A stretch of 64,000 nucleotides of DNA, from positions 40,018 to 104,017 of the IMG/VR virus record IMGVR_UViG_3300034101_003783; one strand, 5' to 3'. Made by a program: the position numbers and the translations under genes. Below are positions 58,845 through 64,000 of this stretch, piece after piece (position 1 is the stretch's first letter; every line of letters starts with the position of its first letter). The notes under the pieces were generated by a model that had not been told where the DNA came from, searched no databases, and saw nothing but the letters and a program-made list of their open reading frames with translations. This DNA comes from a virus.

Positions 58845-60890
58845 ATGTTAGACTTTGTAGATGATAATGAAAAAAACAAAAAGAAAGGAGAAACAGGAAC
58901 TCCAGTTTTAGATAACTTTAGTAAAGATTTAATTAAACAAGCCGAATTAGGAAAATTAGATCCTGTTATTGGCAGAGAAAAAGAAATCTTTAGAATAGCC
59001 CAAGTTTTATCAAGAAGAAAAAAAAATAATCCTATTATTATAGGGGAACCTGGTGCAGGAAAAACCGCAATTGTTGAGGGTTTGGCCATGATGATATATA
59101 GTGGCGATTGTCCTAAAAATTTAGCAGATAAAAGAATTGTTTCTTTGGATATAAATTCTATAGTGGCAGGAACAAAATATAGGGGTCAATTTGAAGAAAG
59201 GATGAAAGTAATAATTGAAGAATTACAAAACACTCCTAATATTATTTTATTCATCGATGAAATACACACAATGGTTGGTGCTGGTAATAGTTCAGGTTCT
59301 TTAGATGCCTCTAATATCTTTAAACCCGCATTATCAAGAGGTGAAATACAATGTATTGGAGCCACAACACTTGATGAATATAGAAAGCATTTTGAAAAGG
59401 ACGGAGCATTAGAAAGAAGATTTCAAAAAATAATTGTAGATCCGTCAACAAAAGAAGAAACATTCCAAATTCTACAACAAAGTAAAAGTAAATATGAGGA
59501 TCATCATAAAGTAAATTATACAGATGAATCACTTTGGTTATGTGTTGAATTGGCGGATAGGTATATTACAGATCGTGAATTTCCTGATAAGGCGTTTGAC
59601 ATCTTAGATGAGGTTGGGTCTAGAATGCAAATAGATATTAAATTGCCCGAAGAGATTGAATTATTAAAAATAGAGGCACAAGAAATTAAAAAAGAAAAAG
59701 TTAATGTAATAAAAAAACAAAACTATGAACAGGCGGCGGAACTTAGAGATAGGGAGAGAAGTGTTTTAATGAAATTAGAAGAAGAAAGAAAAAAATTTGA
59801 GGATAATCTAAAAAACAGTAAAAGGGGAATACCCGAAGATCTAATTTATGAAGTAGTCTCAAATATGACTAAAATTCCTGTTAGTAAAATAAACATAGAT
59901 GAAAAAAATTCTTTAGTTAATCTTGAGTCAGTTCTTAATAAAAATGTAATTGGTCAAGAAGACGCTGTTGGTAAGATATCAAAATCTATAAGGAGAAATA
60001 GGGTTGGAATTAAGGACCCAAATAGACCTATCGGATCATTCATATTTTTGGGATCAACCGGTGTTGGTAAGACTTTTTTAGCAAAAAAATTAGCAAAAGA
60101 AATATTTGGTAGTGAGGATAGTTTGATTCGTGTTGATATGTCCGAATATCAAGAGAAACACACAATCTCAAGACTTATTGGTTCTCCTCCAGGATATGTA
60201 GGACATGAGGAAGGTGGTCAATTAACAGAACAAGTTAAGAATAAACCATACTCTGTTATTCTATTTGATGAGATAGAGAAAGCAAATAAAGATATATTTT
60301 CAACACTATTACAAATGCTTGATGATGGTCACTTAACTGATGGATTAGGTAGAAAGATAAATTTCAAAAACTGTTTAATAATTATGACATCAAATATTGG
60401 TGTTAGAAAAATACAGGACTTTGGAAGTGGTGTTGGATTTAAAACAAATAATAATAGTGATGAGGTCCAGGAAGAATATAAAAGAGACATCCTTAAAAAA
60501 GAATTAAGTAAGTTTTTTGCTCCTGAATTTTTAAATAGGATAGATGATGTTATAATTTTTAATTCCCTAAAAAAAGATCATATCGATAAGATTGTTAAAC
60601 TTGAAATTGACAAATTAATAGGTAGGCTACTATCTATGAAATATAAAGTTTCTTATGAAAACTCTGTTATTGATTTAATTAGTAAGGTTGGTTTTGATGA
60701 ACAATATGGTGCAAGACCAATTAAACGAGCAATCCAAAATAAAATAGAGGATCTTATTTCTGAAAAAATATTAACTAATGAAGTTTTGGAGGGTGTTGAT
60801 TATAAATTAAGTGTTTCTGATGAGGAAATAAAAATTGATGTAGATGTGGTTAATAAACCAAAAAAGGGTAGAAAGAAAAAGGAGGATTAA
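58845..60890 (+). CDS. clpC: ClpC-type AAA+ unfoldase lacking the N-terminal Clp-repeat domain
   Basis: GEPGAGKT, FIDEIH, UVR middle domain (QNYEQAAELRD), GSTGVGKT, GSPPGYVG, FDEIEKA, and a ClpP-binding GVGF loop. Confidence 0.93.
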   Translation: MLDFVDDNEKNKKKGETGTPVLDNFSKDLIKQAELGKLDPVIGREKEIFRIAQVLSRRKKNNPIIIGEPGAGKTAIVEGLAMMIYSGDCPKNLADKRIVSLDINSIVAGTKYRGQFEERMKVIIEELQNTPNIILFIDEIHTMVGAGNSSGSLDASNIFKPALSRGEIQCIGATTLDEYRKHFEKDGALERRFQKIIVDPSTKEETFQILQQSKSKYEDHHKVNYTDESLWLCVELADRYITDREFPDKAFDILDEVGSRMQIDIKLPEEIELLKIEAQEIKKEKVNVIKKQNYEQAAELRDRERSVLMKLEEERKKFEDNLKNSKRGIPEDLIYEVVSNMTKIPVSKINIDEKNSLVNLESVLNKNVIGQEDAVGKISKSIRRNRVGIKDPNRPIGSFIFLGSTGVGKTFLAKKLAKEIFGSEDSLIRVDMSEYQEKHTISRLIGSPPGYVGHEEGGQLTEQVKNKPYSVILFDEIEKANKDIFSTLLQMLDDGHLTDGLGRKINFKNCLIIMTSNIGVRKIQDFGSGVGFKTNNNSDEVQEEYKRDILKKELSKFFAPEFLNRIDDVIIFNSLKKDHIDKIVKLEIDKLIGRLLSMKYKVSYENSVIDLISKVGFDEQYGARPIKRAIQNKIEDLISEKILTNEVLEGVDYKLSVSDEEIKIDVDVVNKPKKGRKKKED

Positions 60891-60905
60891 AAACCCTCCT
60901 TTTTT
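60876..60905. terminator. Bidirectional terminator between convergent genes
   Basis: AAAAAGGAGG...CCTCCTTTTTT hairpin. Confidence 0.75.
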
Positions 60906-60906
60906 A

Positions 60907-61692
60907 TTAATGTTTAGTATAACCAAGTTCCTCAATCATTAACTTACCGACTTTAATACCATTGTAAGTGTCATCTACAACAACATATTCATTTCTAGTG
61001 TGATAGTTGTAATAACCAATAGATATATTAAAACAGGATAAACCAAAATTTTGATTCAAAGGATAAATGTCGGTGTAAGGATGTTTGTGATATTTTGTAT
61101 CACCAGGAAAATGTTCTGTAATTAATTTACCACCAACATTAAAAAATTCACTATCTCTTTTAAACATTGGTCTATTCATTAAAAACTCAGATATCATATT
61201 GTTTTCCGGAGCATCAAACTGAATAGCATAACCAACATTTTTAAAAAAGTTAGGATCCGCATTAAATGACCCTTTACATCCGGTTTCCTCAGCAATAAAA
61301 AAAGCCGCCTTTAAATTAGGTAATTCTTTAAGTAGTTCCAAACAAGCATAAACACCACATTTATCGTCACCACCAATTCCTGTTGGGTTTCCTTCATCAT
61401 TATAGGCCTTTAAAGAAAGTTTAACGTTTCCTTGAGCGTCAGGTAACATTTCTTCTTTTACGTTTATAGTATCAAGACTATGTACAGTGTCTGTATGGGC
61501 AACTACACAAGGAAAATACTCTATATTTTCATCTGTTTGTTTTGTTGCGTAAATATTATATAAATCATCAACATAGTAATCTATATTGTTTTTTTCTAAC
61601 CAATCACAGATAAATTGTATTAATAAATCTTCTTGATAAGTTTTAGAAGGTACAGATAGTACCTCTTTGAGTAAATTATAGTCTCTTTCCAT
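60907..61692 (-). CDS. M20/M28-clan zinc peptidase
   Basis: AHTDTV, GGDDKCG, AEETG, QFD and YHT metal-ligand motifs. Confidence 0.85.
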   Translation of the reverse strand: MERDYNLLKEVLSVPSKTYQEDLLIQFICDWLEKNNIDYYVDDLYNIYATKQTDENIEYFPCVVAHTDTVHSLDTINVKEEMLPDAQGNVKLSLKAYNDEGNPTGIGGDDKCGVYACLELLKELPNLKAAFFIAEETGCKGSFNADPNFFKNVGYAIQFDAPENNMISEFLMNRPMFKRDSEFFNVGGKLITEHFPGDTKYHKHPYTDIYPLNQNFGLSCFNISIGYYNYHTRNEYVVVDDTYNGIKVGKLMIEELGYTKH

Positions 61693-61696
61693 TTTA

Positions 61697-61728
61697 CAAA
61701 GATATGGAAATTAATTATTAATTACAAA
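61697..61728 (-). promoter_or_regulatory. Bacteroidota sigmaA-type promoter, probably leaderless
   Basis: On the minus strand: TTTG, 20-nt spacer, TATCTTTG, TAAA, ATG. Confidence 0.7.
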
Positions 61729-62801
61729 ATAATCCCCTTGATTTTTTTAATTTCTTCAAATAATTCAGGATGGTATAAAGATAAATTTAATTCCTCCATA
61801 TCTTTAACAGATCTATCCTCAGTTGCTTTACCAGTTTCAGGACTTCTATAATAAAAAGTTAAAATTCCCTTTTTAGTGTCTAAATCTCTAAAATAAACCT
61901 CAGCCTTTTTTTCCTTTAAATTAATCCACCTATTAAATCCACCTAGTTCATCGACTTTATTATAAAGATCGTTTATTTCCTCAAGATCAACATTTTCTGA
62001 AATCTCTTCTTCAATTTTCTCTATAATTTTTTCTAACGTACTTTTAGTGTTTCTATCAAAAGTATCTCTATCAAAATCCTCACACCAAACATTATATTCT
62101 AACTCATACCAATCACCTCTATCTGTTTTATCATATCTTAAAACTAATGTCTGTAGTAATTCTTCTAAATCGGCTTCTTTAACATCTAAATTATCATACC
62201 AGTGTAATAAAACATTAACAGTTGTTTTAAATCTTCTACCGTATTCTTGAGTTATCCCAAATTTACGAAAAGGACTTTTTGTTTCAGATTCTAAAACGTT
62301 CTTTACCGCCCTTGTTTTACATTCTTCACTTAATTCAGTGTAGTCATTTATTATATACTCTATATCATCAAATCTTTTATATAAGTAATTTGACACCTTA
62401 GATTCGCTATCTTCATCATTAATATCAAAATTTAAAGTAGGGTTAGAAATTGCCAATATTTTTTTAACAAGTTCTATATTTTCAGGACTAAATTCTCTTA
62501 TTAAATAACCTTCTCTCCAGTCCTCGTTATATCTATCATATTCATAATCATAACCATAATAATAATTCCCCATAAATTTGTTCCAAATATAAATGTCATC
62601 ATCGTCATCAATATTTAAGACCTTTAAGTATTCCTCATCATTTTCAAAAACGATATAAACTATTGTAGATCCTGGATGTTGACTGTTGTATTTTATATCA
62701 TAAATTAAATTTGGATATGACCATCTATTAAATGATATGTTTGAAGTGTCTCCCTCTGAGATTGTTTTTAAAAATTCATATGTTTCGCTATAATCAGACA
62801 T
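61722..62801 (-). CDS. Acidic hypothetical protein (putative internal head protein)
   Basis: 359 aa, ends LFEEIKKIKGIIL. TATTTAT upstream. Confidence 0.65.
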   Translation of the reverse strand: MSDYSETYEFLKTISEGDTSNISFNRWSYPNLIYDIKYNSQHPGSTIVYIVFENDEEYLKVLNIDDDDDIYIWNKFMGNYYYGYDYEYDRYNEDWREGYLIREFSPENIELVKKILAISNPTLNFDINDEDSESKVSNYLYKRFDDIEYIINDYTELSEECKTRAVKNVLESETKSPFRKFGITQEYGRRFKTTVNVLLHWYDNLDVKEADLEELLQTLVLRYDKTDRGDWYELEYNVWCEDFDRDTFDRNTKSTLEKIIEKIEEEISENVDLEEINDLYNKVDELGGFNRWINLKEKKAEVYFRDLDTKKGILTFYYRSPETGKATEDRSVKDMEELNLSLYHPELFEEIKKIKGIIL

Positions 62802-62823
62802 TATAAAGATAAATATATTAAAA

Positions 62824-62890
62824 TTTGGATATAAGTTAATTTATACTTATATTTGTATTATTATATTTATTTAATATAGTTCTTTGAAAT
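62824..62890 (+). promoter_or_regulatory. tmRNA promoter region: host promoter, late motif and boxA-like element
   Basis: TTTG (62824), 20-nt spacer, TATATTTG (62848-55). TATTTAT at 62864-70. GTTCTTTGAAAT at 62879-90. Confidence 0.6.
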
Positions 62891-62893
62891 TAT

Positions 62894-63286
62894 GGGGGTG
62901 TTTTTGGATTTGACAGGTATTGGCTGAAGAATAAGGGCATGTAGGGACTGAGTTAATCTCTTTAAAAACTGACTTAGAAAACAACTGGCAATGTGCTAAA
63001 CAAAATGGAAACTCTTGGATTAGTAAGAGGTTCTGAAGTTACTGTAGCTTAAGAAGTTTACGGAAACGGGGGGTCGGCAGACATATAACCTAGCAACAGA
63101 AGTCGTAGTTTGATAGAGCACACCGGATGGCTCTCTAAATCCGATTCGGGACCATTGGTTGTTGATTTACGATGGTGAAGAACAAATCAACTATTTTGGG
63201 GTATTAAAAAATACCAACCTAAACATGTAGTTGTCTCTTAGACAAAACGAACCGGACGTGGGAGTCGGAGCCCACTAGGTCCACCA
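62894..63286 (+). ncRNA. ssrA: tmRNA (393 nt); predicted tag (A)GNVLNKMETLGLVRGSEVTVA* at 62987-63052
   Basis: 5' GGGGGTG...GGATTTGAC. GCATGTAG / CTAAACATGTAG helix 2. pk1 stem CTGAGTTA/TGACTTAG. AACT|GGC resume site. 3' GGAC-GTGGG..CCCAC..TCCACCA with a G3:U pair. Confidence 0.88.
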
Positions 63287-63289
63287 ATT

Positions 63290-63328
63290 AAAAAACCCCA
63301 CCTTTTTAGGATGGGGTTTTATTTTTTT
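63290..63328. terminator. Bidirectional terminator
   Basis: AAAACCCCA-CCT...AGG-A-TGGGGTTTT hairpin between tmRNA and the convergent CDS. Confidence 0.75.
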
Positions 63329-64000
63329 AGAGGATTACTCTCATATATCTATTAATTTCTCTTATTTCTTCTAAAACATCTTCAGCCATTGGTACTGGTT
63401 GTTTTTTTGGTTGCACTTGTTTAGTTGCTATAGCACCACCTGTTTGAATTCCTTGTCCCGTTTGTTGTTGGTTTTTATAGTCACCTCTTTGTACGTCACC
63501 AACAACTTGTTCTGCACCCTCAATACTTTTATTAGTAGTTTTAAGAGTTTCTTTTGTTCCTTTTGTTATTTTTTCTACACCTTCTGCACCAGTTTTAACT
63601 TTACCCACTAAATTTTCAGCATCTTTTATTTTATCAAGTTTTTCACCACCAGTTTTAATTGATTCTATGGCCTTTTTACCTTCTTTTGCAACTAAAACAG
63701 TGTTTGCCATAATATCAAATGTTGTACAATACGCTGCACCCCATTTACAAACTATAGGTCTTGCCTGATCAACAGTAAGTTTTTCCCCATTTTCCCACAA
63801 ATAATCTTCAATTTTTGTAACAGCCTTTTTATCTAAAGTCTCAACAATTTTTTGTCCTAGTTTTGTTTCTAATTTTTGAAGTATACCTTTACCAAAACTT
63901 TTTGCTAAACTCTTACCCCAAGTTGCCATATAATTTACTGCTTTATATTTTGCTAAACTCTCAATACCTTTCTCAACCAGTTTTCCTGTTGACTTACCAA
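63327..64000 (-). CDS. Hypothetical protein, 5'-partial
   Basis: The frame stays open beyond the listed Met at 63929 to the window edge (GKSTGKLVEKGIESLAKYKAVNYMATW...). Ends VLEEIREINRYMRVIL. Confidence 0.65.
   Translation of the reverse strand, partial: GKSTGKLVEKGIESLAKYKAVNYMATWGKSLAKSFGKGILQKLETKLGQKIVETLDKKAVTKIEDYLWENGEKLTVDQARPIVCKWGAAYCTTFDIMANTVLVAKEGKKAIESIKTGGEKLDKIKDAENLVGKVKTGAEGVEKITKGTKETLKTTNKSIEGAEQVVGDVQRGDYKNQQQTGQGIQTGGAIATKQVQPKKQPVPMAEDVLEEIREINRYMRVIL

Follow-up and report, generated by a model that had tools for sequence, protein, structure and literature searches.

The DNA stretch analysed here (64 kb; hereafter the window) is the final 64 kb of a 104-kb IMG/VR virus record for which CheckV gave a completeness of 33%. 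The record is a fragment of a large freshwater phage, and a one-piece tmRNA gene of 393 nt was located at positions 62894–63286 on the plus strand by direct reading together with alignment to the Rfam model RF00023. From this gene to the end of the contig there are 714 nt. The gene closes a module in the order ATPase, M20-like peptidase, 359-aa protein and tmRNA (58845–63286), a module that is conserved in relatives such as L040, L163, and L045. The features of the locus are listed below, where the letters A to D denote the acceptor stem types of related genes and L numbers denote individual related loci.

58845–60890, plus strand: Clp/Hsp100 double AAA+ ATPase, 681 aa, without N-domain
60907–61692, minus strand: M20-like peptidase
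61722–62801, minus strand: 359-aa protein with tblastn matches beside tmRNAs of types A–D and 63.6% amino acid identity to L040
62878–62893, plus strand: conserved leader motif AGTTCTTTGAAATTAT abutting the mature 5′ end; a AGTTCTTTGA-like motif stands in almost all relatives
62894–62900, plus strand: acceptor 5′ strand GGGGGUG, A-type, which pairs with CACCUCC in relatives and faces UAGGUCC here
62912–62942, plus strand: helix 2 5′ strand GAC...GCAUGU, A-type, the same as in L029
62943–62986, plus strand: pk1 and the spacer ahead of the resume codon, the same as in A-type L029 and L045
62987–63052, plus strand: tag frame of 21 codons from the GGC resume codon to the TAA stop (63050–63052), encoding GNVLNKMETLGLVRGSEVTVA
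63053–63191, plus strand: pk2–pk3 body, A-type, the same as in L029/L045 and strongly unlike B-type L163, L014, and L002
63192–63231, plus strand: candidate crossover interval, pk4 hairpin and beginning of the helix 2 3′ strand, common to both parental types
63232–63257, plus strand: helix 2 3′ strand, B-type, L163/L002-like by multiple alignment
63258–63275, plus strand: T-arm GUGGG-AGUCGGAG-CCCAC, B-type, with stem 63258–63262/63271–63275 and an 8-nt loop at 63263–63270
63276–63286, plus strand: acceptor 3′ strand UAGGUCC, B-type (63276–63282), then discriminator A and CCA (ACCA, 63283–63286)
63292–63329, plus strand: intrinsic terminator hairpin and U-run, identified by folding and closest to that of B-type L163 (84–85% identity)
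63327–63998, minus strand: downstream ORF, truncated by the contig end, with distant homologues (34–37% amino acid identity) near the A-type tmRNAs L051 and L075

No Pfam family was matched by the 359-aa protein or by the downstream ORF, and a search for close relatives of the latter came back empty. Upstream of the tmRNA gene a sigma-70 scan returned weak matches only, and TATATTTG (62848–62855), 38 nt ahead of the mature 5′ end, fits the Bacteroidetes-type −7 motif, TAnnTTTG. The terminator hairpin (63292–63320) has a predicted energy of −16.5 kcal/mol (z −2.7). The terminator cassette (63287–63330) recurs at L152:550–590, L127:590–630, and L163:8426–8483 with 85–98% identity over 41–60 nt, and the genes beyond the cassette differ.

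The acceptor stem of the window gene contains the pairs G1–C, G2–C, G3·U, G4/G, G5/G, U6–A, and G7·U, the mismatches being G4/G69 and G5/G68. An earlier reading of this DNA, made from the letters alone (the sequence-only reading), had described GGGGGUG facing UAGGUCC-ACCA with these two mismatches, and both direct reading and the Rfam alignment confirmed it. The alanine identity set (G3·U70, discriminator A73, and the 3′ CCA) is present and is invariant in 71 distinct relatives. The T-stem is paired at 5/5 positions around a loop of 8 nt, rather than the 7-nt UUCRANY, and most pairs of pk1 are standard in the alignment to RF00023. Also intact are the tag frame and pk2–pk4.

A search with RF00023, which had been proposed as a check, matched the window gene over the full model length (E 5e-16), but the score of 45.5 bits falls under the gathering score of 47, and many helix 2 and acceptor pairs were flagged as nonstandard. 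The gene is tmRNA-derived and of a known kind, a phage tmRNA, and not a new class. ARAGORN called no tmRNA in the window. That silence was considered as a sign of decay and the idea was rejected, since canonical A-, B-, and C-type relatives were missed too: ARAGORN was also silent on L040, L045, L076, L053, L014, and L163 (Rfam 76–114 bits), while D-type genes and some others were found. Phage surveys based on ARAGORN would thus undercount this tmRNA family.

Related genes, tag, and gene neighbourhood

About 170 related loci were collected. An exact 15-mer from pk2, compared with viral contigs, gave 78 loci, nearly all with homologous tmRNAs, and the 3′ end of the window gene as a scan query gave 36 viral and 59 metagenome loci; the relatives' contigs reach up to 290 kb. 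Complete intron-less genes were extracted in 115 cases, of which 72 are distinct, so that the window gene leaves 71 other distinct sequences. The acceptors GGGGGUG/CACCUCC, GGGGGCG/CGCCUCC, and GGGGGUA/UACCUCC constitute type A, GGGCCUA/UAGGUCC type B, GGGUCCG/CGGAUCC type C, and GGGGAUG/CAUCUCC type D.

The T-loops of types A, C, and D are canonical UUCGANN, the A-type 3′ end reading GAGGG-UUCGAGU-CCCUC-CACCUCC-ACCA. Every B-type gene carries the 8-nt loop AGUCGGAG, which was found in 96 viral and metagenome loci; the search pattern itself fixed this loop, so its invariance across the 96 loci is no result. The T-stem covaries (GAGGG/CCCUC versus GUGGG/CCCAC). Since the genes at these 96 loci are otherwise well paired, the 8-nt T-loop is, judged from these comparisons, a lineage trait and not damage to the window gene. 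A tag identical to GNVLNKMETLGLVRGSEVTVA was shared by 18 distinct relatives, whose acceptors are of types A, B, and C, and the wider tag family reads GNV(L/I)..., with 21–22 aa ending V(T/S/A)VA, the peptide being conserved across acceptor types. ARAGORN gave the same reading register in D-type relatives. As this one peptide spans three acceptor types, the 21-aa tag ending EVTVA is by the same kind of comparison a family trait. The sequence-only reading had been right that the loop and the tag exist, but not in taking either as a deviation of this gene. Its question whether relatives share the deviations has a divided answer, as tag and T-loop are shared and the acceptor mismatches are unique to the window copy. 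Further family traits of the window gene are the pk2 core and the neighbourhood of Clp ATPase, M20-like peptidase, and 359-aa protein genes.

By tblastn, at least 70 of the collected loci were found to contain the Clp ATPase and at least 93 the peptidase-like gene, across all acceptor types, with 62–93% amino acid identity for the ATPase among the matches listed. A tblastn search of GenBank phages with the ATPase returned only matches below 60% identity, and neither ClpP nor SmpB was found in the 104-kb partial record. Taken together, the Clp module and the conserved 21-aa tag ending VTVA suggest a phage-run tag-and-unfold pathway. The rerouting of tagged proteins, raised in the sequence-only reading, is accordingly plausible at the level of the family, because the Clp unfoldase is conserved beside the tmRNA, but not for this gene in particular.

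Exact matches to the B-type T-arm and to the pk2 core numbered zero in 185,579 bacterial species genomes (two pattern scans), and neither a host tmRNA nor a bacterial source emerged from these exact-pattern scans. A blastn search of GenBank phages with the tmRNA gene likewise gave no match. In four relatives (L068:1490–1712, L018:2297–2596, L003:8399–8629, and L066:10061–10291), the T-loop is split by group I introns (RF00028, 71–96 bits). The intron of L068 is placed after UU, and splicing would give back GAGGG-UUCGAGU-CCCUC. This is T-loop intron subsite 3, which has been reported only from the class Bacteroidia (PMC11915505), a hint that the hosts of the phage family are Bacteroidota. GOLLD RNA genes (RF02032, 150–320 bits) were observed 0.4–1.6 kb past the tmRNA in relatives (L040:751–1161, L045:5657–6069, L076:3665–4076, and L163:9316–9498); none was found in the window's record, whose contig stops 714 nt past the tmRNA.

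Pairing of the acceptor stem and helix 2

The acceptor stem was paired at 7/7 positions in 113 of the 115 complete genes, which fall into six covarying acceptor types, the exceptions being the window gene and L053. Among the 71 other distinct sequences 496/497 acceptor cells were canonical (283/284 for pairs 4–7). Pair 4 was C–G in 42, G–C in 27, and U–A in 2 of these sequences, pair 5 was C–G in 44, G–C in 20, and A–U in 7, and pairs 6 and 7 also covary. Random re-pairing of 5′ and 3′ strands, by comparison, produced at least two mismatches in 49% of cases. All 72 other complete loci that share the 3′ end of the window gene had GGGCCUA as a fully paired (7/7) 5′ strand, and the window gene is the sole case of an A-type 5′ strand with a B-type 3′ strand among the 115 complete genes. 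Because pairing is near-perfect though the rest of the gene is freely shuffled, the acceptor is under selection for pairing, with recombination frequent and unmatched ends removed. The proposal that nuclease evasion or a decoy lies behind the G-G mismatches finds no support in these data, since pairing is kept at those positions, and an adaptive noncanonical function of the window tmRNA is likewise unsupported.

The window gene also scored lowest by other structural measures. Rfam scores were 110–114 bits for A-type genes, 104 for C-type, 102 for L053, and 62–80 for B-type (62.6–114.3 for the relatives overall), against 45.5 for the window. When the tRNA-like domain (first 50 and last 72 nt) was cofolded, the window gene came out at −31.6, the weakest of the 72 distinct genes (mean −37.3, sd 2.1), and the acceptor stem failed to form. 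The predicted energy of the helix 2 duplex was −12.8 kcal/mol in the window, while the 71 cognate duplexes had a mean of −17.5 (sd 2.1) and a weakest value of −13.9. Artificial combinations of A-type 5′ and B-type 3′ strands averaged −14.2 kcal/mol, with the window inside their range, and the window's 5′ strand combined with the 3′ strand of L029 gave −16.3 rather than −12.8 kcal/mol. Helix 2d (GCAUGU/ACAUGU) is retained and the rest of the helix is weaker by predicted energy. The earlier statement that pk1, helix 2, and terminator look intact therefore stands for pk1 and the terminator, but is not borne out for helix 2, whose predicted duplex is weaker than in all 71 distinct relatives.

None of the alternative 5′ starts that keep G3·U and the GG (D-loop-like) element repairs the G/G mismatches. 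A shifted 5′ end, GGAUUUG at 62906, pairs with UAGGUCC through three wobbles; it loses G3·U and the D-loop-like element and was set aside as a chance pairing.

Mosaic structure of the window gene

Bases 1–338 of the window gene are 98.8% identical to the A-type genes L040, L029, and L032, the alignment going no further than base 338. Over the last 61 nt, identity is 95% to B-type L002 and 92–93% to L009 and L014. The mosaic was mapped in a multiple alignment of the window gene with two A-type and four B-type genes. From the 5′ acceptor strand through pk2–pk3 the window gene is A-type (L029/L045), and from 63232 through the terminator it is L163-like, the last 55 nt and the terminator being B-type. 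To the left of 63192 a 27-nt insertion is present in the B-type genes that share the crossover stretch, and to the right of 63231 the A-type genes diverge. The G/G mismatches arise because an A-type 5′ strand faces a B-type 3′ strand; the cognate strands would be CACCUCC and GGGCCUA. Over the 338 nt, the window gene shows four differences from L029, of which one is a compensated pair. As there are no changes beyond the crossover, the event looks recent, without decay or compensation.

Bodies, tags, and terminators are shuffled across the family, for example in L163, a B-type gene with an A-type tag region. The A-type pk2–pk3 body, however, was present in 0/73 complete B-type loci. A 31-mer covering the junction was absent from the viral contigs scanned, and no other collected contig repeats the junction. 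A second mosaic in the family, L053:2016–2406, joins a 5′ GGGGGCG to an L075-type 3′ end (CACCUCC) with one C6/A67 mismatch; it has the second-weakest tRNA-like-domain fold, yet scores 102 bits with Rfam.

Metagenome and RNA data

The stretch or part of it is contained in 20 public runs from 18 studies, mostly lake-water metagenomes. Logan contigs were examined for three DNA runs from different studies (2020, 2022, and 2024; X1, X2, and X11) and for one RNA run (X15). An exact 133-nt unitig spanning 63177–63309 was recovered without differences in all three DNA runs, at a depth similar to that of the unique downstream flank (7.7 versus 7.8 in X1, 8.6 versus 9.9 in X2, and 11.1 versus 12.5–17.6 in X11). 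Within the data set the left 30-mer of this unitig was confined to A-type genes, the match to B-type genes ending after 15 nt at the 27-nt insertion. Since an exact unitig from independent lake metagenomes carries an A-type-only 30-mer, the A|B junction is natural DNA and not a base-call error. A local error in which CC was read as GG was also considered and rejected, as all 55 nt of the 3′ segment are B-type and the unitig is exact in three runs.

The 5′ side of the gene was recovered in X1, where a 587-nt contig (62334–62920, no differences) links the upstream gene to GGGGGTG. In this run the depths agree, with 9.4 for the upstream flank, 7.7 for the junction, and 7.8 for the downstream flank. 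Between the two ends lies a shared body of ~ 300 nt (62900–63196) that is identical in many co-occurring phages and has a depth of 60–320 against ~ 8 for the flanks (10–40×). Across this multi-strain repeat, the linkage of GGGGGUG to UAGGUCC on one molecule is given by the assembly and not by the short reads, and a repeat of this sort is a typical place for an assembler to go astray. No contig of X1 has the window's A at 62928. In X2 the downstream flank has a depth of 9.9 and the upstream flank of 2–5, and in X11 the downstream flank has 17.6 with no contig on the upstream flank; most genomes with the window's 3′ end in these two runs have another upstream region. A depth-2 contig of X2 connects 62864 with 63612 through 40 other letters, and the two flanks are therefore neighbours in a tmRNA-less variant, from which the terminator and ~ 95 codons at the end of the downstream ORF are missing too.

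In RNA run X15 the contigs match the shared A-type body and run into a canonical A-type 3′ end. The chimeric 3′ end was found in 0 contigs of this one run, a count that proves neither silence nor expression. The sequence-only reading had named canonical relatives together with an unexpressed copy as an outcome that would speak against it, and this is largely what was seen: the nearest relatives are canonical, and X15 shows the A-type 3′ end.

Possible origins of the gene

One interpretation of these data, and the one towards which we lean with modest confidence, is that the window gene is a natural recombinant of two co-circulating lineages of a single freshwater-phage tmRNA family. An A-type gene would have supplied the upstream flank and bases 1–338, that is, the acceptor 5′ strand, helix 2 5′ strand, pk1, tag, and pk2–pk4, and a B-type (L163-like) gene the last ~ 55–95 nt and the terminator, and thereby the 3′ strands of both helix 2 and the acceptor stem as well as the T-arm with its 8-nt loop. 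The crossover would have fallen in the ~ 40 nt common to both types (63192–63231). Because the strands of the tRNA-like domain would have co-evolved separately in each lineage, their combination would give the two adjacent G/G mismatches beside G3·U and the weakened helix 2. The hybrid RNA would still be transcribed and terminated, but may be processed poorly and alanylated poorly or not at all: two purine–purine mismatches leave three plus two acceptor pairs, and handling by RNase P, AlaRS, and EF-Tu/SmpB should suffer. Going by structure and covariation only, the hybrid tmRNA is probably not chargeable. Such a defective allele could be tolerated if the host supplies a tmRNA and the phage can do without its own, and the tmRNA-less variant in X2 fits such dispensability. 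Note, however, that the junction lineage recurs in the 2020, 2022, and 2024 runs, which is easier to understand if the tmRNA works. Decay had been offered as the null hypothesis in the sequence-only reading; a defective copy is indeed closest to the evidence, but its cause would be recombination between lineages and not mutational decay.

It could be, instead, that assembly or strain mixing took a wrong path through the shared ~ 300-nt body, and that the true gene has a matching GGGCCUA and is functional. We regard such a misjoin as the leading alternative, if on balance a doubtful one. The body stands far above the flanks in depth in every DNA run examined, flank depths disagree in X2 and X11, the window path mixes strain variants (as with the A at 62928), and the contig stops soon after the gene. 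Moreover, end-matched mosaics with a swapped body, such as L163, are common in the family, and 113/115 relatives are matched. Against this, the 3′ unitig has the A-type-only 30-mer, so that a matched gene needs a further crossover near its 5′ end, and the A-type pk2–pk3 body was in none of the complete B-type loci; in addition, flank and junction depths agree in X1, and the X2 contig joins the two flanks directly. Very little probability attaches to a functional noncanonical RNA, either an uncharged or poorly charged tmRNA that acts as an SmpB or ribosome decoy or one that escapes host nucleases. The persistence of the junction across several lake metagenomes, the intact pk1, tag frame, T-stem, G3·U, A73, and CCA, and the precedent of the CDS-less mycobacteriophage DS6A RNA that inhibits endogenous tmRNA (PMC11915505) could be taken in its favour, but this is one case among 115 complete relatives, the crossover alone explains all changes (four differences from L029 in 338 nt), the mismatches sit exactly at the family's strictly covarying positions, and the chimeric form was absent from the RNA run examined. 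It is equally improbable that an expressed hybrid is kept as a natural dominant-negative tmRNA which, with mRNA-like domain and T-arm intact, would titrate SmpB or stalled ribosomes.

Site-specific integration, in which a mobile element entered the 3′ part of an A-type gene and brought a B-type 3′ end with it, is also highly unlikely. As reportedly set out by Williams in 2003 in 'Traffic at the tmRNA gene', genomic islands and prophages integrate into the 3′ end of ssrA and give hybrid genes, and the replaced part here is the usual target of such elements. Furthermore, nothing next to the tmRNA of any relative matched the downstream sequence at the DNA level. On the other hand, no integrase-like domain was detected in the 223 aa downstream and no displaced A-type 3′ fragment within three mismatches in the 104-kb record; the B-type patch includes a terminator cassette also present at ordinary B-type loci, distant homologues of the downstream ORF lie near A-type tmRNAs, and the contig ends too soon to show a far boundary.

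If the recombinant is real, it would be a natural case of hybrid incompatibility inside a structured RNA, in which a single crossover breaks a stem, and it would show how strong selection is against such recombinants (2/115) despite free shuffling elsewhere. A misjoin would serve as a useful warning instead: viral contigs turn chimeric at conserved RNA genes that co-occurring phages have in common. In either event, claims on new tmRNA biology belong at the level of the family, T-loop and tag not being peculiar to the window gene, and the family-level features are more promising leads than the window's acceptor.

Comparison with known systems

The window gene has the architecture of the standard one-piece tmRNA (SsrA, RF00023) that works with SmpB, including G3·U70, A73, CCA, helix 2, pk1–pk4, and T-arm. 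It differs from that standard in the G/G mismatches, the 8-nt T-loop, the weak helix 2, the 21-aa VTVA tag, and the sub-threshold score. Hybrid ssrA genes made by islands likewise have a foreign 3′ end and a chimeric mature RNA; in those cases, however, the incoming piece normally makes the gene functional again and an integrase is adjacent, whereas the window gene has lost pairing, and neither an integrase nor a displaced fragment was seen.

Phage tmRNAs occur in ~ 2.3% of phage genomes, among them huge phages, Melnitz, and pelagimyophages (PMC9004378, PMC7162821). They resemble the present case in that a complete ssrA is carried by a large phage of lytic type, but the reported genes are intact and several are two-piece, while the window gene is a one-piece hybrid whose end strands are unmatched. 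The CDS-less tmRNA-like RNA of DS6A is also a phage tmRNA derivative that may interfere with trans-translation (PMC11915505). The tag region is missing from the DS6A RNA, whereas in the window gene the full tag and the pseudoknots are retained and the damage is to the acceptor stem; DS6A is the sole precedent for the decoy idea, which nothing in the window data supports. The tmRNA database does not accept entries that have two or more mismatches in the acceptor (PMC11915505), and under its acceptor rule (7-bp stem, at most one mismatch) the window gene is left out, though it is plainly of tmRNA descent.
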